Source: a virus
Lineage: Duplodnaviria; Heunggongvirae; Uroviricota; Caudoviricetes
Strand: one strand, 5' to 3'
IMG/VR virus record: IMGVR_UViG_2654587568_000008
Span: 1 to 6,553 of that record
DNA length: 6,553 nt
The translations under genes were made by a program, and so were the position numbers. The notes under the pieces were generated by a model that searched no databases, was not told the origin of the DNA, and worked only from the letters and a program-made list of their open reading frames with translations. Of this stretch, positions 1 to 6,553 are shown piece by piece (position 1 is the stretch's first letter; the number at the start of each line of letters is the position of its first letter).

Positions 1-928
1 GGATTGGATTAGGTTTAATAACATACCTATAATGTTCAGTCATGAGATATCAAGAATAAATGCTACGCCTGGTAACGTTCTTCTACAGAGCACCTCTGCT
101 TTTCCGCGCGTTTTAGTAAAAGCATCTGAGTTGAGAAAGGTTTTAGTTATACGTTCTTTTGAGCCTGATGATCACTTAAAGTTCATATTAGAGAACGCAA
201 TTGAGATATTTAAAAAACAGATGCCAGATCTTGATTGCGAGATTATTGATGTTAGATCGAAAGCTGAGTTTATTGATGCTCTAAATCAATATCAAGGTCA
301 TATTCTTGTTATGGATTGTCATGGAAACCATGATGGCAATGGGAGTCATGGATGGTTAATAATAGGTGAGGATAAAGTGGACACTTGGAGTTTGAGAAAA
401 ATAGCAAGAATTCCTCCTATCGTAATTCTGAGTGCATGTTTAACATCTGCCCTAAGTGGTTCTCATGCCTCTGTTGCTAATGGCTTCGTTATAAGTGGTG
501 CATTAAGTGTCATCGGAACATTACTGCCTGTAAATGCGATAGACTCTGCTATTTTTGTAAGTCGGTTGATCTACCGGTTTTACGAGTTTCCTTCGACGCT
601 ATCTACAAATTTTACACATGTTAATGTAAGGCTTTTTCTTTCTGTTTTTCTTAGGATGTCCTATGCAAGCGATTTAATAAGAGGATTTTTATCTGAAGAT
701 TTGATACCGAATAATTCATGGAAGAAAGATGCAGTTGACATTAACATGTATATAAACATGCTTCACCATGATTGGTATGATTATGTAATTAACAAATTGA
801 CGATGTTAACGGGGCTCACGAAAAAAGATGTACTTGATTTTATCGATAGAAAATTATTCATAACCGAAACTATGTGCTATAGCCAAATTGGATTTCCAGA
901 TGCAATCACAATTAGTCTTAAAGATTGA
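1..928 (+). CDS. CHAT/caspase-like (His-Cys dyad) protease-domain protein, probably 5'-partial (reading frame open from window edge; first in-window ATG at 32; stop TGA 926-928)
   Basis: Frame beginning at nt 2 has no stop before ATG 32, so the ORF may continue upstream, and there is no Shine-Dalgarno before ATG 32. Translation contains ...HILVMDCHGNHDGNG... (His-Gly), about 40 residues later ...PPIVILSACLTSALSG... (Cys), then ...ANGFVISGALSVIGTLLPVNAIDSAIF..., the layout of the CHAT/caspase catalytic core. The gene is much more AT-rich than the rest of the window. Family call is by eye, not HMM. Confidence 0.6.
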   Translation, partial: DWIRFNNIPIMFSHEISRINATPGNVLLQSTSAFPRVLVKASELRKVLVIRSFEPDDHLKFILENAIEIFKKQMPDLDCEIIDVRSKAEFIDALNQYQGHILVMDCHGNHDGNGSHGWLIIGEDKVDTWSLRKIARIPPIVILSACLTSALSGSHASVANGFVISGALSVIGTLLPVNAIDSAIFVSRLIYRFYEFPSTLSTNFTHVNVRLFLSVFLRMSYASDLIRGFLSEDLIPNNSWKKDAVDINMYINMLHHDWYDYVINKLTMLTGLTKKDVLDFIDRKLFITETMCYSQIGFPDAITISLKD

Positions 929-959
929 CAACTGTATGTAATAAATATGGCATACTTCC

Positions 960-1000
960 GGCACAGAGCGAATATAACAGATCAGGTTTAGCTCTGTGCC
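960..1000. repeat. Perfect 10-bp inverted repeat GGCACAGAGC (960-969) / GCTCTGTGCC (991-1000) with 21-nt spacer, between convergent genes at the GC-content boundary
   Basis: Arms are exact reverse complements. No U/T tract follows on either strand, so it is not a classic intrinsic terminator. Confidence 0.7.
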
Positions 1001-1035
1001 ATAGGTGTACCAACTCTCATCTGAGCTAATGCTCG

Positions 1036-1230
1036 TTACTCAATAACTCCCGCAAATTTGTAAATCTTGCGTGATGCCCATTTATTTGGGCATGATTTAA
1101 TATCAGGATCTGGAAAGTCTGGCCTGTATTTCTGGCCAGTTCTCCTGTTTACGCTGTTCCAGCGAAGAACTGTCGATACTGAAACTCCACAGAAGTTGGC
1201 GACTTGTTTAGTTGTCATTAAGTTGTTCAT
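1036..1230 (-). CDS. Small DNA-binding protein, excisionase/AlpA-like (Xis family), 64 aa
   Basis: ATG at 1228-1230 is preceded by GGAGG with 7-nt spacing. Stop TAA at 1036-1038. Product MNNLMTTKQVANFCGVSVSTVLRW...FPDPDIK...KW has the winged-helix pattern of phage Xis/AlpA proteins. Its start overlaps the upstream gene's stop by 1 nt (TAATG). Confidence 0.7.
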   Translation of the reverse strand: MNNLMTTKQVANFCGVSVSTVLRWNSVNRRTGQKYRPDFPDPDIKSCPNKWASRKIYKFAGVIE

Positions 1231-1850
1231 TACTTTACCTCCTGCGGCGGCTCCGGTAGCGGCATCCAGTGGGTTACTTTCGATGCCGGTTCTTCCACAT
1301 CGTCAGTAACTGCCCACCATTTGTTTCTCGACCAATCGTAATACCCTTCGAAGGTATCGCACTCAGTCCAGCCGTAAGACTTCCCCCAACACCAAACATA
1401 CTGTTTATCGTTCGGCATTCGCTCACTACAGCTTATCCAACCATCCGGAGTTACCGGAGAGTTGCCCGACAGCTCGTTCAACTTGTAAGTCTGGCTTACA
1501 GGTTTGGCACCATGAAGCATGGCGGCGCGGCAGGCGTTCCAGCCTTCATCAAAGCCGACTATGCCATTATTTAAAGACGGAAGAGCATCCGGCACCACCG
1601 ACACTGGCTGAGCCATATATAGCGGCTGAACATACCAGCCCTTTGATAACCAACTGTCAGCAATGTTTTTGCTCCTGGTTATTGCCGGAATACCTAAGCC
1701 ATTGTCTGAATGAAGCCACGCCACCGGCTCTGCTTCCAGTGATGCCAGAGCAATTTCATAAGCAAGGCGCTCAACATTGTCTCGCACGTCTAGGCTGCCG
1801 ATTCGTTCTTTGATTTCTTTAATCTGTTCCTTATCGGTGTAAGTGGTCAT
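1230..1850 (-). CDS. yfdT: DUF551-domain prophage protein (Eaa/YfdT-like), 206 aa
   Basis: ORF with ATG at 1848-1850 overlapping the upstream stop (TAATG). C-terminus ...WISCSERMP...VWCWGKSYGW...KVTHWMPLPEPP is the DUF551 signature as I recall it. Position after yfdS matches the K-12 yfdQ-R-S-T order. The symbol is by synteny and memory and is less certain than for yfdQ/yfdR. Confidence 0.7.
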   Translation of the reverse strand: MTTYTDKEQIKEIKERIGSLDVRDNVERLAYEIALASLEAEPVAWLHSDNGLGIPAITRSKNIADSWLSKGWYVQPLYMAQPVSVVPDALPSLNNGIVGFDEGWNACRAAMLHGAKPVSQTYKLNELSGNSPVTPDGWISCSERMPNDKQYVWCWGKSYGWTECDTFEGYYDWSRNKWWAVTDDVEEPASKVTHWMPLPEPPQEVK

Positions 1851-2212
1851 TATGCTCCAGCCTCCGGTGCTTTTGGCATTACTGCCCAGTGAGTGATATT
1901 AATATTTTCAAGGTCCCCGATCTGAAATGTCCACTGCCATTCTCCGGTTTCTTTTTGTCCCCAGGTGTACCAGAGAGAACGCCAGCCAATCAGCCAGCCT
2001 TCTCCGTTAGCATCAAATAACAGAACACTTTCATTTGCTGGTGGCAGTTCAACTGATACTGGTATTACTTTGTTTTCCTGTGCTGCACATTTAGCTTCAA
2101 GCGCATCGAATTTACGCACCAGGTATTCAGCATCCGTTTCATTCACTTTCAGGTCTCGTGGTACACATCTCCCGTGAAGAAACCCTTCCATTTCGAAAAC
2201 ATTCATGCGCAT
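1850..2212 (-). CDS. yfdS: DUF551-domain prophage protein YfdS, 120 aa
   Basis: ATG at 2210-2212 with GGAG 8 nt upstream. Stop TAA at 1850-1852. C-terminus ...GWLIGW...WYTWGQ...NITHWAVMPKAPE is DUF551-like. It overlaps the yfdR stop by 10 nt. Length and position match K-12 YfdS from memory. Confidence 0.75.
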   Translation of the reverse strand: MRMNVFEMEGFLHGRCVPRDLKVNETDAEYLVRKFDALEAKCAAQENKVIPVSVELPPANESVLLFDANGEGWLIGWRSLWYTWGQKETGEWQWTFQIGDLENINITHWAVMPKAPEAGA

Positions 2213-2739
2213 TTGCGTAACTCCGATAACTCGTTAAAACGTTCCATAAACATCCCGTAGGCATGGCCCGGAGCCAGTGGAATAACTTTGAACATCTCTG
2301 TTGTCGGGATACCTTCCAGTACTGGCCAGAAAGAGCCATCATCAAGCCCGAGATCGCGGCGTTCAGTTGCCAGCATGATGAGATCGGCATATTTCACAGG
2401 CGTGCTCATAACCGGGGGTAACCCGTATTTCTCACGGATTACGGCGTCTATTTTTTCTTCCATCCGTTTATAGTCAGGAAGAAGGCGTTTCAGTGGAGCG
2501 GGGATGTCCTGACAATACGCTTCTGTTGCATCATGCATTAACGCTTCAAAAGCAAATTCCTGCGGCACCAGCTGGCTGCAAAGCACCGCATGCTGGGCGA
2601 CACTGTAGAAGTGTGAAAGATGTCCTGCAAAGCGACAGATATTTGAAAGGGAAACTGCGATATCGTTAATCACGATGTCGTCTTTATTTATCTTGTCATA
2701 ATAAAAATGCTTCCCGGAAAAAGTTTTAATAAATGACAT
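2203..2739 (-). CDS. yfdR: HD-domain phosphohydrolase (5'-deoxynucleotidase-type) YfdR, 178 aa; start at ATG 2737-2739 rather than the track's GTG at 2751
   Basis: HD motif H...HD...D is visible (FAGHLSHFYSVAQHAV...ALMHDATEAYCQD). ATG at 2737-2739 is preceded by GGAG with 6-nt spacer, while the track's first codon at 2749-2751 is GTG. The resulting 178-aa length and its position between yfdQ and yfdS match K-12 YfdR from memory. Confidence 0.8.
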   Translation of the reverse strand: MSFIKTFSGKHFYYDKINKDDIVINDIAVSLSNICRFAGHLSHFYSVAQHAVLCSQLVPQEFAFEALMHDATEAYCQDIPAPLKRLLPDYKRMEEKIDAVIREKYGLPPVMSTPVKYADLIMLATERRDLGLDDGSFWPVLEGIPTTEMFKVIPLAPGHAYGMFMERFNELSELRKCA

Positions 2740-2832
2740 TTCGTTCTCCACTTTATATGCGCTGCACCGCGCTGAATTCTGCTAAAAGGAAGCTCTCACC
2801 ATCCGGTGATTATTGAGTTAATTACGTTTCCA

Positions 2833-2856
2833 TAAATGCCCCCGCAGGGGCATTTG
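2833..2856 (-). terminator. GC-rich palindromic hairpin AAATGCCCC-cgca-GGGGCATTT in the yfdQ-yfdR intergenic gap; candidate intra-operon terminator or attenuator (possibly bidirectional)
   Basis: 9-bp perfect stem (2834-2842 / 2847-2855) with 4-nt loop, U-rich at the 3' side of the stem on both strands. It lies in the 116-bp gap between the yfdQ stop (2868) and the yfdR start (2739). Confidence 0.45.
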
Positions 2857-2867
2857 CAGTAATGAAA

Positions 2868-3692
2868 TCAGGCGGTGAAAGTACCAATAAAGGTTTCTAC
2901 TTTGCTGTCTTTGAATTTCTCAACAAGCAGATCACGAAATTCGTTAGCCATTTCTTCCTGCATCGCTTCCAGCTGAATAATGCGCAGAACCAGTACAGGA
3001 CGATCGCCAGTGATAATGCTGAGGCGTAATTTAAACGGACGTTCTTTCAGGCCTTCAAACGGAACGCATTTAAATTCAAATGCCACTGGCATAATGTCTT
3101 TGGTTTTCGCTTCGACAGACTCCATCAGGGAGCGTTTGCCGCTGAAGTCATTGTCTTCAAAATCAGCGGTCTGGTTTGCTTCAATTGTGATTTTACGGAC
3201 TGCCGCAGCCGCTTTGGTTGCCTGAATGGTGTCACCATTAGCATCAAAGCCCACAAGGTAGTCGGCCCAGTCTTCAATCCATTCTGCCAGTGACTTCTGG
3301 GAGTTACGCTCGCCATTAACAGACAACAGAGCAGAAAACGGTGCTGTCTTTTTCAGTTTGAGGGTGGCGGTGTTATCTGCGTGACCTGGTTCATCAATAG
3401 TACCCAGGTTAAGCACACTGACGGCTCGCATATTATCGGCATCGATAAAGCAGCGGGTGCCTTCATCTGCAAGATCTTTAGAATAACGGGTAAAGTCATC
3501 GATGCTGGCAGTGGAAAGCGCACCACGGAAACGGAAGCGATTTAAATTAAATTTTTCCAGATCATGAATGCGGAAATTCTCAGGCAATGCCACAGCATCG
3601 GCACCAATCTTACTGATAATTTCATTAACACCCTGAGCAGAAATAAGGGCATGGATTTGATTAATTGCGGTTGCGTCTAAGTTCTGAGACAT
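2868..3692 (-). CDS. yfdQ: Prophage protein YfdQ (DUF2303 family, function unknown), 274 aa
   Basis: ATG at 3690-3692 is preceded by GAGGA with 6-nt spacer. Stop at 2868-2870. No recognisable catalytic motif. The 274-aa length and position upstream of yfdR match K-12 YfdQ from memory. Confidence 0.8.
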
Positions 3693-3757
3693 AATAAGTC
3701 CTCACTATATAAAGATATTCAGTGATGAGATAAATAATCAGTTAATTAAGAACGATA

Positions 3758-4120
3758 TTAATGACCTGCTGCGCGGAGTTTTCCGTCAGGTTCACCGGCA
3801 AGAGTCAGTAATTGTCCCTGGTCTTCCTGCAGAATAGTCAGGCGACCACCGCGATTGACATACATCGGCGTTTCGGTGGTGTCTTCTTCGGAAATTTTCC
3901 CGCGGTTAGTCGGGCGAACATATGAGAGTTTGTGTTTTATTTTCACACGGTTCTCATCAAACGGTTCGATTTCCAGGTTGAGCGAGACCTTACCTTTGGT
4001 TTTCGTGTTCATCACACCGGAAGCGACTTCACTGAGAACTGCGCCGATTTTGGTTTCAAATACGCCGCCGTCCAGCTCCCCGATAAATGCCTGCACATCA
4101 GTACTGCGTTCGCTAGCCAT
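3758..4120 (-). CDS. yfdP: Prophage protein YfdP-like, 120 aa (true start ATG 4118-4120; the track's 197-aa ORF starting at 4351 is an over-extension)
   Basis: Internal ATG at 4118-4120 (MASERSTDVQ...) is preceded by GAGGAG with 7-nt spacer. The upstream 77 codons translate to a Cys/Arg/His/Pro-rich, non-protein-like sequence and overlap strong RNA hairpins. The 120-aa length matches K-12 YfdP from memory. Confidence 0.7.
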   Translation of the reverse strand: MASERSTDVQAFIGELDGGVFETKIGAVLSEVASGVMNTKTKGKVSLNLEIEPFDENRVKIKHKLSYVRPTNRGKISEEDTTETPMYVNRGGRLTILQEDQGQLLTLAGEPDGKLRAAGH

Positions 4121-4168
4121 TTTGCTGCTCCTCATCATATCGACCCTGCAAGGTCGGTTGGTTTCTCC

Positions 4169-4257
4169 ACAAAACAGAGAAGAACACCTGCGGTGGCAGC
4201 CGCCCGGATGGATTGGGTTATGAGCCCGTCGTCCGGTGATGCTCTTCTCTGTTTTGT
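4169..4257 (-). repeat. 15-bp perfect inverted repeat ACAAAACAGAGAAGA (4169-4183) / TCTTCTCTGTTTTGT (4243-4257) enclosing a 59-nt GC-rich, internally structured loop; long stem-loop in the yfdP 5' leader
   Basis: Arms are exact reverse complements. The loop contains further short hairpins (GCGG/CCGC 4190-4203, GGGTT/GAGCCC 4215-4227). It sits between the DicF-like terminator and the yfdP ribosome-binding site. Confidence 0.6.
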
Positions 4258-4325
4258 AAAAAGAGCGGTACCAGCCGGAAGCAAGTGTACAAACTGGTAC
4301 CGCCAAAGCAGTGGCTGTTGTGGTG
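4258..4325 (-). ncRNA. Candidate DicF-like prophage sRNA with its intrinsic terminator (stem GCGGTACCAG / CTGGTACCGC at 4265-4303, then TCTTTTT)
   Basis: Minus-strand sequence ...CUGCUUUGGCGGUACCAGUUUGUACACUUGCUUCCGGCUGGUACCGCUCUUUUU resembles the E. coli DicF core as I recall it (UUUGGCGGUAUCAGUUUUAC...GCCGCCCUUUUU). A 10-bp GC-rich stem followed by a U tract is directly visible. Location in the early-left leader of a lambdoid immunity region parallels dicF in Qin. Not confirmed by covariance search. Confidence 0.4.
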
Positions 4326-4714
4326 GGGTTGTCACTCAGGCGTATGGTCAACCTGACAATCCGGTGTCCTCAACGGGGAAAGAGTAACCCCGCCATACTT
4401 ACCGCCGCGCCATTTCGCGGATTACCACAACGCTGAGAGCACTTAGCCAGTTACGGCACCACACTTTGTCGCGGCTCCATAAATGCCCTCATCGTTGCAC
4501 CCTGGTCTCTTCCCAGGCGTCAAACCGAATCGCCACGCTGGTTAGGCGTCTTATCAGCATCATCATTGACTTGCACATTCCGGCTACCTGGTTTGTTTGC
4601 CCGAGCAAGGAGTGGATTGTCCCCTTTAACGTCCCCAGACCGCTAACGACGCATGTGCCATACGCCGTGTTACAACCAAATTTTGTTAGTACCTTGTTTG
4701 TAGGTCTGGAAAGA

Positions 4715-4767
4715 AAGATAAAATGAAGTTGCGCATTATGCAAGTGTTTTTATTGCGAGATATGCAA
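4715..4767 (-). promoter_or_regulatory. Candidate OL/PL: two 15-bp operator sites TTGCGCATTATGCAA (4729-4743) and TTGCGAGATATGCAA (4753-4767), centres 24 bp apart, overlapping a candidate leftward promoter
   Basis: Both sites share TTGC-N7-GCAA with the OR site at 5537-5551. Minus-strand -35-like TTGCAT (4738-4743) and -10-like TATCTT (4715-4720) with 17-bp spacing are weak. An alternative -10 CATAAT (4735-4740) has poor -35 spacing. Confidence 0.45.
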
Positions 4768-4777
4768 TTTGATGGGT

Positions 4778-4802
4778 AATGAAAAGCCACCTTCTGGTGG
4801 CT
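4778..4802 (-). terminator. Intrinsic terminator downstream of cI (stem AGCCACC/GGTGGCT, loop TTCT, followed by TTTCATT on the minus strand)
   Basis: 7-bp stem (4785-4791 / 4796-4802) with 4-nt loop and a U-rich tail, located 22 bp past the cI stop codon. Confidence 0.55.
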
Positions 4803-4823
4803 AATTGATGTTGAGGTAGGGGG

Positions 4824-5516
4824 TTAATTGTGTCGCTTAAGGGTTTGTGACTGACTGATTAAGACCTTTCCAAAGACCATAAACCGGTGTTCGTTTTCGC
4901 TGGTAATTCCCCATTCGCGGTAAATCTGATTATCAGAAATTACCAGCAGTTTATCAGGTATCATTTGCAGTCGTTTGACGTAAATTTTATCATCAAAACC
5001 AAATACATATATACCATCCCCATCAAACTGATTGATACTGATATCAACGAAGATGAGATCTCCTGGCTCAATGGTTGGACACATACTGTCCCCACGAACG
5101 TTGATAACTTTAATGTGATTTGCTGGTCGTCCACCAAACATCGATACAGCATTATCAGTTCTGTATTCAATGGCATGAATCACATCAATGACATCACCGC
5201 CCTGGATAAGGCCATTTCCCGCACTGGCACTGACATCCAGCATTTCAATACGGAATACATCCTTCACCTGCGCAACATCCTCACTAATACTGTTTTTACA
5301 TACAGTATTACTTTTGAGGTCTGAGGTAAAGAGATCAGCAATATCAACACCTAAGCTCCTGGCAATATTACTCAGGGCTTGTTCAGTGAATTGTTTCTGC
5401 TTACCTGTTTCGAGGCGCGAGATATTCGCCGCATCCACTCCTATTGCTTCAGCGAGATCGGCGATTTTCATGTTCTTCGCCTGGCGAAGTTGTCTGACTC
5501 GATTTCCTATGTTCAT
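4824..5516 (-). CDS. cI: CI-type prophage repressor: N-terminal XRE-family helix-turn-helix plus C-terminal LexA-like S24 peptidase domain, 230 aa
   Basis: N-terminus ...MKIADLAEAIGVDAANISRLETGK is a helix-turn-helix. C-terminus carries the GDSM serine motif (VRGDSMCPTIEPGD) and a downstream lysine (IYVKRL) as in LexA/lambda CI, with a candidate Ala-Gly cleavage site (SASAGNG). Divergent from the Cro-like gene. Confidence 0.9.
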   Translation of the reverse strand: MNIGNRVRQLRQAKNMKIADLAEAIGVDAANISRLETGKQKQFTEQALSNIARSLGVDIADLFTSDLKSNTVCKNSISEDVAQVKDVFRIEMLDVSASAGNGLIQGGDVIDVIHAIEYRTDNAVSMFGGRPANHIKVINVRGDSMCPTIEPGDLIFVDISINQFDGDGIYVFGFDDKIYVKRLQMIPDKLLVISDNQIYREWGITSENEHRFMVFGKVLISQSQTLKRHN

Positions 5517-5613
5517 GCGTTTATTACATTTCTTTATTGCGCGTTAAGCAAATCAACTTGCGCAAAATATTTGCGTGAAATAATATGCTCATCACGCAAT
5601 ATGTGGAGGTTAT
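5517..5613. promoter_or_regulatory. OR/PR/PRM divergent control region with repeated TTGCG half-sites
   Basis: TTGCG occurs at 5537, 5558 and 5571, CGCAA at 5561 and 5595. 15-bp site TTGCGCGTTAAGCAA (5537-5551). Palindromes TTGCGCAA (5558-5565), CGCAAA-ATA-TTTGCG (5561-5575) and TTGCGTGA...TCACGCAA (5571-5578 / 5592-5599). Candidate PR: -35 TTGCGC (5558-5563), 17-bp spacer, -10 TAATAT (5581-5586). Candidate PRM (minus strand): -35 TTGCTT (5546-5551), 17-bp spacer, -10 TGTAAT (5523-5528). GGAGG at 5605-5609 precedes the cro ATG. Confidence 0.6.
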
Positions 5614-5874
5614 ATGCAATCACCATTACGGAATGTGCGTAAGGCGCACGGATTTACTTTGCAGCATGTTGCTGCGGGCGTTCAGGTCAATCCAGCGACG
5701 CTGAGTCGTATTGAAAGACTGGAACAAATTCCATCTATCGATCTTGCAGAACGTCTGGCCAATTTTTTTAAGGGTGAAATCAGCGAAATGCAGATTCTTT
5801 ATCCGGCACGTTTTCAATCTAGCCAAAACCAGAATGGGTTTAAACCACAGGAACAGGAGGTAAGCCGTGGGTAA
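5614..5874 (+). CDS. cro: Cro-like helix-turn-helix regulator (XRE family), 86 aa
   Basis: ATG at 5614 with GGAGG 4 nt upstream. Helix-turn-helix ...FTLQHVAAGVQVNPATLSRIERLEQIPS. Divergent from cI across the operator region. Stop TAA at 5872-5874. Confidence 0.85.
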   Translation: MQSPLRNVRKAHGFTLQHVAAGVQVNPATLSRIERLEQIPSIDLAERLANFFKGEISEMQILYPARFQSSQNQNGFKPQEQEVSRG

Positions 5875-6418
5875 GCATCACTGGAAAGTGGAAAAACAAC
5901 CTGAGTGGCACGTGAAAGCTGTCAGAAAAACTATCGCGGCATTGCCTGGGGGTTACGCTGAAGCTGCTGACTGGCTGGATGTAACAGAGAACGCTTTATT
6001 CAACCGCCTTCGTGCAGATGGCGATCAGATTTTCCCGCTGGGATGGGCAATGGTTTTACAGCGCGCGGCTGGCACTCACTACATTGCGGATGCTGTCGCA
6101 CAGTCTGCTGGTGGGGTGTTCGTATCGCTTCCTGAAATTGAGGAAGTAGAGAACGCCGATATAAACCAGCGCCTGCTGGAAGTCATCGAACAGATCGGGA
6201 ATTACTCAAAGCAGATTCGTTCGGCAATCGAAGATGGGGTCGTGGAGCCACACGAGCAGACAGCAATTAATGATGAGTTGTATCTGTCAATTTCGAAGCT
6301 CCAGGAACATGCAGCACTGGTCTACAAAATCTTCTGCGCTCCAGAAAAGAGTGACGCCCGCGAGTGTGCAGCTCCGGGCGTCGTGGCGTTTTGTGTCTGT
6401 GGAGAAACTAACGCATGA
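5867..6418 (+). CDS. CII-like / YdaT-type prophage regulatory protein (putative), 183 aa, GTG start, translationally coupled to cro
   Basis: GTG at 5867-5869 is preceded by AGGAGG (5855-5860) and overlaps the cro stop (GTGGGTAA). Possible helix-turn-helix ...GYAEAADWLDVTENALFNRL. Position immediately after cro is typical of CII/YdaT-like regulators. Family assignment is by position and memory only. Confidence 0.7.
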   Translation: MGKHHWKVEKQPEWHVKAVRKTIAALPGGYAEAADWLDVTENALFNRLRADGDQIFPLGWAMVLQRAAGTHYIADAVAQSAGGVFVSLPEIEEVENADINQRLLEVIEQIGNYSKQIRSAIEDGVVEPHEQTAINDELYLSISKLQEHAALVYKIFCAPEKSDARECAAPGVVAFCVCGETNA

Positions 6419-6553
6419 ACAGTTTAACGGCAAATAACCGTTTGTCGCAACAGCTTGTATGGGTCCACCACATATTGCAATTTTTATTCTCTTTTAAAAT
6501 ATATTCCACGGGCGTCATTAGTGCGAGCGCCTTGTGGGGTCTTTTGCTGTTAT
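6415..6553 (+). CDS. Start of a further ORF, 3'-truncated by the window end, coupled to the upstream gene by an ATGA overlap; function unknown
   Basis: ATG at 6415-6417 overlaps the TGA stop at 6416-6418. GGAGAAA lies 7 nt upstream. Frame is open for 46 codons to the window end (MNSLTANNRLSQQLVWVHHILQF...). The AT-rich stretch 6470-6510 could instead be non-coding. Confidence 0.3.
   Translation, partial: MNSLTANNRLSQQLVWVHHILQFLFSFKIYSTGVISASALWGLLLL

Follow-up and report, generated by a model that had tools for sequence, protein, structure and literature searches.

A 102-nt element in the early-left leader of an Escherichia coli lambdoid prophage folds, on the RNA sense to the early gene yfdP, into a three-way junction closed by a long helix, and this fold is maintained by compensatory changes among enterobacterial homologues. 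The element (positions 4262–4161, minus strand) lies within IMG/VR virus record IMGVR_UViG_2654587568_000008, of which positions 1 to 6,553 (6,553 nt, hereafter the window) comprise the immunity and early-left region of the prophage. It stands between the terminator of a small RNA (sRNA) of the DicF locus and the first gene of the early operon, and the reading preferred here, by analogy and with a probability of roughly 0.55, is that it serves as a processing site at which RNase III separates the sRNA from the early mRNA. The structure, conservation, position and strand of the element and its independence from yfdP are established in the sections below; RNase III cleavage and its consequences we infer because a mapped RNase III site lies in the positionally equivalent helix of the K-12 Qin prophage.

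The inverted repeat closes a three-way junction

The components of the element are listed below, with the minimum free energy (MFE) folds, the alignments or the repeat search on which each is based.

4243–4257, minus strand: 15-bp repeat, 5' arm on the transcript and core of helix P1; 15/15 complementary to 4169–4183
4169–4183, minus strand: 15-bp repeat, 3' arm on the transcript (repeat search)
4238–4262, minus strand: P1 5' strand, 25 nt, the first 5 nt being the U-tract of the upstream terminator (MFE folds)
4164–4188, minus strand: P1 3' strand (GGUGUUCUUCUCUGUUUUGUGGAGA) (MFE folds, covariation)
4204–4236, minus strand: hairpin P2, with a CCGGA/UCCGG base, internal loops, a GGG/CCC tip and the 7-nt loop CUCAUAA (fold, covariation)
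4190–4203, minus strand: hairpin P3, GCGG-CUGCCA-CCGC (fold, covariation)
4210–4230, minus strand: nearly invariant tip motif GACGGGCUCAUAACCCAAUCC (invariant columns of the 23-sequence alignment)

The outer arms of the repeat, 4169–4183 (ACAAAACAGAGAAGA) and 4243–4257 (TCTTCTCTGTTTTGT), are complementary at all 15 positions and lie 59 nt apart, and the repeat search extends them imperfectly to 4169–4193 and 4233–4257 (25 nt each, 84% complementary). Among inverted repeats with a spacer of up to 100 nt this 15-mer is the longest perfect one in the window, and among 300 dinucleotide shuffles of the window a single one attained a perfect repeat of that length. On the minus strand the arms form the central part of a helix of 25 pairs including G-U (P1, 4262–4238 with 4188–4164), made up of 20 uninterrupted pairs and 5 basal pairs. 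P1 closes two hairpins, P2 (4236–4204) and P3 (4203–4190), resulting in a three-way junction. Folded alone, the 102-nt element reaches −51 kcal/mol with z = −7.8, while in its context (4100–4320) z is −6.8. An initial annotation of this stretch had described a perfect 15-bp repeat, regarded a chance origin as highly unlikely and proposed that the leftward transcript forms a long helix enclosing further hairpins; the repeat search, the shuffles and the minus-strand fold of P1 around P2 and P3 bear out each of these points.

Covariation across enterobacterial homologues

Homologues were drawn from loci encoding YfdP relatives in genome and viral collections, from a motif scan and from phage records. 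The element is present in 12 or more Enterobacterales genera and their phages, having been recovered from Escherichia, Shigella, Salmonella, Klebsiella and Citrobacter phages and also from Mangrovibacter, Enterobacter, Atlantibacter, Leclercia, Superficieibacter, Phytobacter, Kosakonia, Scandinavium and Pseudocitrobacter. A first alignment of 23 hand-collected sequences was made with MAFFT and its consensus structure, derived with RNAalifold, contains P1, P2 and P3. In this set 97.8% of cells are paired and 13 pairs show compensatory changes. The shuffles gave 5.7 such pairs, none of the 500 reaching the observed number, and controls with slid partners gave no more than 5. A covariance model built from the 23 sequences collected 78 sense-strand copies, 75 of them distinct; in the alignment of these 75, which was fitted to the model and hence leans towards the structure, the proportion of paired cells is 97.9% and compensatory changes affect 14 pairs and 146 cells. 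None of 500 shuffles was as high on any measure and the slid controls gave no more than 4 compensatory pairs. Pairing supported by covariation, the lack of which in homologues was named at the outset as grounds for abandoning the stem-loop, is thus present in both sets.

The following figures refer to the 75 sequences. The core of P1 (17 pairs) is 99.1% paired and compensatory at 6 pairs, as exemplified by columns 19/148 (GC in 40 sequences, CG in 34) and 14/153 (CG in 53, AU in 16). Compensatory changes are also found at 4 of the 6 pairs of P2 and at 3 of the 4 pairs of P3, the latter hairpin being of variable length in homologues, with inserts of up to ~30 nt. Covariation is nearly nil in the basal pairs of P1, which join the U-tract with GGAGA (1 of 6 pairs), and these pairs are unproven. 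The length of the element ranges from 102 to 133 nt across homologues and the differences are not multiples of three, so the region is non-coding. Three overlapping open reading frames (ORFs; 4135–4335 on the minus strand, 3855–4223 and 3932–4387 on the plus strand) were considered as protein-coding and rejected on the same lengths and on the pair-compensating nature of the substitutions.

On the sense strand, U-G pairs alternate with C-G or U-A, for instance at columns 29/138 (UG in 64 sequences, UA in 7 and CG in 4). Together with the genomic context, this alternation points to RNA on the yfdP-sense strand. Folding energy alone discriminates weakly between the strands (−49.1 vs −46.4 kcal/mol), the sense strand folding better in 19 of 27 sequences.

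The element links a DicF-locus small RNA to the early operon

The elements that flank P1 on the transcript are the following, L033 denoting the K-12 Qin locus and SD the Shine–Dalgarno sequence.

4325–4431, minus strand: leader segment matching the 5' part of the K-12 Qin DicF precursor (190 nt) at ~90% identity or more (alignment with L033:2250–2612)
4264–4304, minus strand: intrinsic-terminator hairpin of the DicF-locus sRNA, 13-bp stem, followed by C and U5 at 4263–4258
4161–4170, minus strand: conserved GUGGAGAAAC at and just past the P1 3' end
4139–4158, minus strand: small G+C-rich hairpin separating P1 from the SD; homologues of differing sequence also have one
3758–4133, minus strand: yfdP, with SD GAGGAG at 4133–4128, ATG at 4120 and stop at 3758

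The U-tract of the terminator (U5, 4262–4258) directly adjoins the helix on its 5' side, and the 5' half of the terminator hairpin, UUUGGCGGUAcCAGUUU (UUUGGCGGUAyCAGUUU), aligns together with the U-tract with dicF. As expected of an orthologous locus, a near-identical leader of ~110 nt, a terminator hairpin and a U-tract are found at the equivalent place. Relative to Qin dicF (L033:2252–2440), however, the sRNA of the window lacks the 19 nt that hold the DicF 5' end and differs in the 3' half of the hairpin, and the Rfam DicF model (RF00039) gave no match in the window, either at the gathering threshold or at E ≤ 10. Judged from sequence, the neighbouring hairpin is therefore a DicF-locus sRNA by position and not a member of the DicF family by the Rfam test. 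The proposal of a DicF-like terminator directly 5' of the helix was correct as to position and flanking homology, but the likeness does not extend to the family. Many other loci display a conserved single-stranded UUGCUGUGUGUAGUCUU upstream of the sRNA hairpin and, because the window, Qin and UUGCUGUGUGUAGUCUU-type variants differ, the DicF locus hosts several different small RNAs. A pairing of the single-stranded region of the sRNA with the C/A-rich 5' arm of P1 was rejected, since the P1 arm is identical in E. coli loci whose sRNA 5' regions differ.

On the downstream side, the end of P1 lies ~36 nt from the yfdP SD and ~49 nt from the ATG; the element had been located about 50 nt upstream of the ribosome-binding site (RBS), which is right in placement but slightly overstates the distance. 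GUGGAGAAAC is kept even where the preceding helix has an unrelated sequence. The post-helix motif UGUGGAG(A/U)A..UAAC, found at 4161–4170 on the minus strand and upstream of yfdP in loci L007, L018, L027 and L029, contains an SD-like GGAG. A mini-ORF starting from GUG/AUG-GAG-AAA in this motif was discarded, neither its frame nor its stop being conserved.

In all loci the element is positioned 3' of a hairpin and U-tract and 5' of the operon's first gene. In most cases this gene is yfdP, while elsewhere among the motif-scan loci it is RdgC-like, yfdR-like or unrelated, and the upstream small-RNA module is also variable between loci. Because both the flanking sRNA modules and the first genes vary, the element is a conserved leader linker and not a yfdP-specific operator. 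In two E. coli loci (L003 and L011) repeated GATTTTGACGGGTCAGA-like units replace the element before yfdP, and homology to the window begins 17 nt before the ATG; the K-12 CPS-53 arrangement is suspected to be the same.

A candidate RNase III processing site

Within a single transcript P1 provides the two turns of double-stranded RNA (~20–22 bp) expected of an RNase III substrate, the valley of the enzyme fitting ~22 bp of double-stranded RNA (PMC6212723). In K-12 Qin a helix of ~21 bp (L033:2443–2463 with 2578–2598; z = −4.8) directly follows the dicF terminator and ends just before the dicB SD. The two helices resemble each other in operon type and position and in closing a branched interior through ~21–25 bp, and they are preceded by leaders ~90% or more identical over ~110 nt. 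In contrast, the Qin helix and its interior have no sequence homology to the element, and the covariance model finds nothing in L033. The Qin interior measures ~110 nt and lacks the initiator-tRNA-like tip described below, and the next gene is dicB rather than yfdP. According to the passages on DicF in PMC5069750 and PMC9438474, both citing Faubladier 1990, RNase III makes the 3' end of the 72-nt DicF. Counted from the annotated 5' end, that 3' end falls at L033 ~2454, midway along the 5' arm of the Qin helix. Table S1 of Gordon 2017 lists an rnc-dependent position, 1649470, assigned to 'dicF-dicB' and marked known, and a second RNase III cut forms the 5' end of the 190-nt DicF precursor (PMC10448788).

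A third helix of ~22 bp, unrelated to the other two and closing a simple loop, is found in Providencia (L027 1387–1482 and L029 ~1395–1480), where it lies between the terminator U-tract and UGUGGAGUAAU before yfdP. The helices of L027 and L029 differ by compensatory changes. The feature common to all three helix types is a helix of ~21–25 bp directly after the terminator.

In the mechanism proposed, transcripts passing the terminator of the DicF-locus sRNA would fold P1 directly after it and, from the Qin analogy, host RNase III would most likely cut both strands of P1 near mid-helix, at roughly 4250 and 4176. The cut would free the small RNA with a short 3' extension, which exonucleases could trim to the terminator hairpin. 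It would also give the mRNA of yfdP, yfdQ, yfdR and the genes beyond a new 5' end, probably consisting of ~10–15 single-stranded nt (ending in GUGGAGAAAC) followed by the small hairpin.

RNase III stems of rRNA operons and of T7 early mRNA are likewise helices formed from flanking sequences, and cleavage of both strands separates functional RNAs. P1 is similar in that it is a long helix formed by sequences around a structured RNA, although the RNA enclosed here is only 39–70 nt in size and of putative function and stability. An RNase III-sensitive hairpin reportedly lies between nutL and N in the lambda N leader; this hairpin involves the N ribosome-binding region and modulates N translation. 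The lambda hairpin and the present element are both long hairpins in the leader of the leftward early promoter (pL) of a lambdoid phage, just 5' of the first early-left gene, and the one of lambda is processed by RNase III. In contrast to lambda, the SD is here outside the structure, conserved masking of the SD is not found and there is no N gene.

Several observations weigh against a plain processing site. In most homologues P1 is interrupted by one or two mismatches (C-U, G-G and C-C; columns 15/118 and 19/114 of the 23-sequence alignment), and the perfect 15-mer is thus a feature of the E. coli variant. K-12, in which RNase III sites are mapped, is without the element upstream of yfdP, the region there being suspected to be of the L003/L011 type, and the coordinate of Gordon 2017 corresponds to L033:2471, which is 7 nt past the arm of the Qin helix and not inside it. 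The nearly invariant tip of P2 is left unexplained by an RNase III site as such. In addition, two related structures described below (L154 and L162) have closing stems of 6–9 bp that are too short for RNase III, which suggests an independent function for the apical domain. RNase III processing is nevertheless the best supported of the three roles put forward in the initial annotation, through the covarying helix of more than 20 bp and the equivalent helix of Qin. The support is by analogy: the demonstrated cleavage is that of the Qin helix, and the site described here is a predicted one. The other two roles, an antitermination RNA of put or nut type and a translational control element, did not survive the analysis, as set out under the alternatives.

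Genomic setting of the leader

The following features lie between the leader and the cro-like gene.

4729–4743 and 4753–4767: two operator-like palindromes TTGC-N7-GCAA (oL), marking the leftward early promoter region
4785–4802 (read from 4802 to 4785): symmetric hairpin AGCCACC-AGAA-GGTGGCT just 3' of the repressor stop, terminator-like on both strands
4824–5516 (5516 to 4824), minus strand: XRE/cI-type repressor gene
5537–5551: third TTGC-N7-GCAA copy, between the repressor and cro-like genes

TTGC-N7-GCAA has 3 matches in the window against 0.25 expected, and the three palindromes, which flank the repressor gene, probably represent oL and oR for this type of immunity. The hairpin at 4785–4802 is probably the terminator of the repressor gene, insulating pL. 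Between the operators and the first early gene extends an ORF-poor, highly structured leader of ~600 nt, in which the element is found ~470 nt downstream of the operator/promoter region. The early operon consists of yfdP, then yfdQ, yfdR and further early genes, and the arrangement of repressor, gap of 600–900 nt and yfdP-yfdQ-yfdR is common to ST64B, phiNP, LLS, Eeyore and mEp460. No N gene was found in the window or in mEp460, the latter displaying a Q-like antiterminator; SfIV and its relatives likewise have a Q-like antiterminator without N (PMC3851460). The host of the element is an N-less lambdoid prophage of the SfV/ST64B/mEp460 type.

The initiator-tRNA-like tip of P2 and alternative functions

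The tip of P2 closely resembles the anticodon arm of initiator tRNA (tRNAfMet). Of the 17 positions 4231–4215 of the minus strand (CGNCGGGCUCAUAACCC; CGaCGGGCUCAUAACCC), 16 are identical to the metZ tRNAfMet anticodon arm (CGuCGGGCUCAUAACCC), and the three G-C pairs and the CUCAUAA loop of 7 nt keep the register of its stem and loop. Aligned locally with metZ, this segment scores 29, a value reached by none of 2000 shuffles, while the similarity of the flanks beyond the anticodon arm is not significant by alignment. The loop equivalents of C32, U33 and CAU are invariant or nearly so, whereas positions 37–38 vary, and in P2 the stem beneath the three G-C pairs is interrupted, which is a difference from tRNAfMet. 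A tRNA gene or remnant was rejected because ARAGORN reports 0 genes and the similarity is confined to the anticodon arm. A pseudoknot between the P2 loop and the RBS was also rejected, as loci with different loops (L017, UUCC; L025, UAAC) share identical RBS regions.

The P2/P3 core recurs outside the early-left leader. On an unrelated viral contig (L154, 1917–1971) it is closed by a 6-bp stem and placed after an intrinsic terminator, directly 5' of a holin gene that is followed by the small terminase, and a variant with a closing stem of ~9 bp is present in L162 (10416–10500). The apical domain, which thus also exists independently of the long helix, is suggested to play a sequence-specific role beyond that of the interior of an RNase III stem. 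The element as a whole might accordingly be a sequence-specific ligand-binding RNA, with the P2 tip, mimicking the tRNAfMet anticodon arm, as its working part and P1 as a scaffold, acting as a decoy or sensor in early phage development; the partner of the tip could be a VapC-type anticodon nuclease, methionyl-tRNA synthetase (MetRS) or the 30S P site. The extent and register of the match, the conservation of the C32, U33 and CAU equivalents and the recurrence of the motif on short closing stems favour such a role, as does the finding that enteric VapC toxins cut tRNAfMet in the anticodon stem-loop and accept mimics resembling this stem-loop (PMC7180214). Neutralisation of an anticodon-targeting defence by phage tRNAs is described in a further report (PMC11464382). 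Opposed to these points, the resemblance was noticed post hoc and stops at the flanks, one subfamily (GACGGCUCAUAACCC, e.g. L010, L014 and L024) lacks the third G-C pair and retains only two, and L028 has another loop. The 3' AAUCC, which is equally conserved, has no tRNA counterpart, ARAGORN finds no tRNA and the partner of the tip is only hypothetical. We consider a ligand-binding function of this kind unlikely. The narrower proposal, namely a functional mimic of the initiator-tRNA anticodon stem-loop that is displayed on a stable three-way junction in the first early-left RNA and serves as decoy or sensor, is slightly less likely again; under it, cleavage of P1 by RNase III could free the tip as an RNA of ~60–80 nt.

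Just as unlikely as ligand binding is a passive module, in which the stable fold would deny loading of Rho or shield the 5' region of the mRNA from decay without engaging a specific nuclease or ligand. The highly structured nature of the leader, the lack of an N-type antiterminator in these phages and the occurrence of three unrelated helix types at the same position are consistent with it. It leaves unexplained, however, the constant helix length of ~20–25 bp in the three types, the invariant tip and the mapped RNase III cut in Qin.

Antitermination in cis by a put-type RNA or a nut site, enabling RNA polymerase to read through the downstream early-left terminators, is improbable. It would suit phages without N, in the window and mEp460 as well as in SfIV and relatives, and the placement of a conserved, structured RNA where a long operon begins, and the window contains the boxA-like CGCTCTTTTTA; this string is, however, limited to the E. 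coli variant and not kept in homologues. The set that characterises a nut site (a conserved boxA, a boxB hairpin and a cognate N gene) was not found, CGCTCTTTTTA being variant-specific and N lacking from the window and mEp460. The HK022 putL and putR sites resemble the element as conserved, structured cis RNAs that comprise two hairpins and lie in the early leader of a lambdoid phage lacking N. The put RNA consists of two tandem stem-loops of ~70 nt, adopting a V shape with a triplex and lacking a closing helix, directly after PL (PMC9378689). In contrast, a 25-bp helix closes the three-way junction of the element, which is located beyond the first terminator of the leader and ~470 nt from the operators at 4729–4767. 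It is also single-copy: mEp460 (44.5 kb) has one sense-strand match to the covariance model and none in the right operon, and the tip motif occurs once in the window. The 20–33 kb region of HK022 gave neither a covariance-model match nor a meaningful blastn match.

A translational operator of yfdP, in which the structure or a long-range pairing masks the RBS, is more improbable still. The MFE fold of the window does pair the 12 nt upstream of the sRNA hairpin (AGCCACUGCUUU) with GGAGCAG...UGGCU at the SD/AUG of yfdP, but this pairing is not conserved, native duplexes having a mean of −8.1 kcal/mol against −7.7 for non-native ones and a mean z of +0.4 relative to shuffles. Moreover, the SD and AUG lie 36–49 nt outside P1 and the element also precedes unrelated first genes. 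Least probable of all is a DNA-level site, whether a protein-binding palindrome, a recombination site or a module boundary. In its favour, the element links variable sRNA modules to variable first genes and compensatory changes keep a DNA palindrome too; against it, the inner hairpins P2 and P3 covary, as befits single-strand folding, U-G pairs are conserved on the sense strand and a length-variable spacer of 39–59 bp or more is atypical for a protein-binding palindrome.

Prevalence and significance

At ≥90% identity, the E. coli form of the element is present in 2,490 of 5,426 complete genomes, at 3,319 places and in up to 5 copies per genome, and these copies are annotated as nothing or as hypothetical protein. 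Phages of Salmonella, Shigella, Klebsiella and Citrobacter carry diverged copies, as do many further enterobacterial genera. Searches of Rfam 15 gave no family match, DicF and AgvB included, and only two matches at chance level (E = 1.7 and 7.1). Named prophage sRNAs were considered and set aside: Pas sRNAs and HnrS are described in late or structural-gene regions, while AgvB and AsxR, which are Rfam families, have no match here. A description of the element was not found in the literature searched. The RNase III-type processing stem and the DicF-locus class are known, and the conserved three-way-junction interior is new.

The element is among the most widespread unannotated structured RNAs of E. 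coli prophages. Its alignment and covariance model could found a new Rfam family and remove the spurious hypothetical-protein calls at these places. Should RNase III cut the element, the dicF processing scheme of 1990 would become a general design of N-less lambdoid early-left operons, in which one transcript yields an Hfq-type small RNA and, after the cut, the early-gene mRNA, and it would provide a handle on the maturation of prophage small RNAs from read-through transcripts. The tRNAfMet-like tip offers a concrete starting point for testing whether a phage RNA engages the machinery of initiation or of tRNA surveillance and, should the mimicry hold true, it would represent a new class of phage-encoded partial-tRNA mimic, carried by nearly half of complete E. 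coli genomes.

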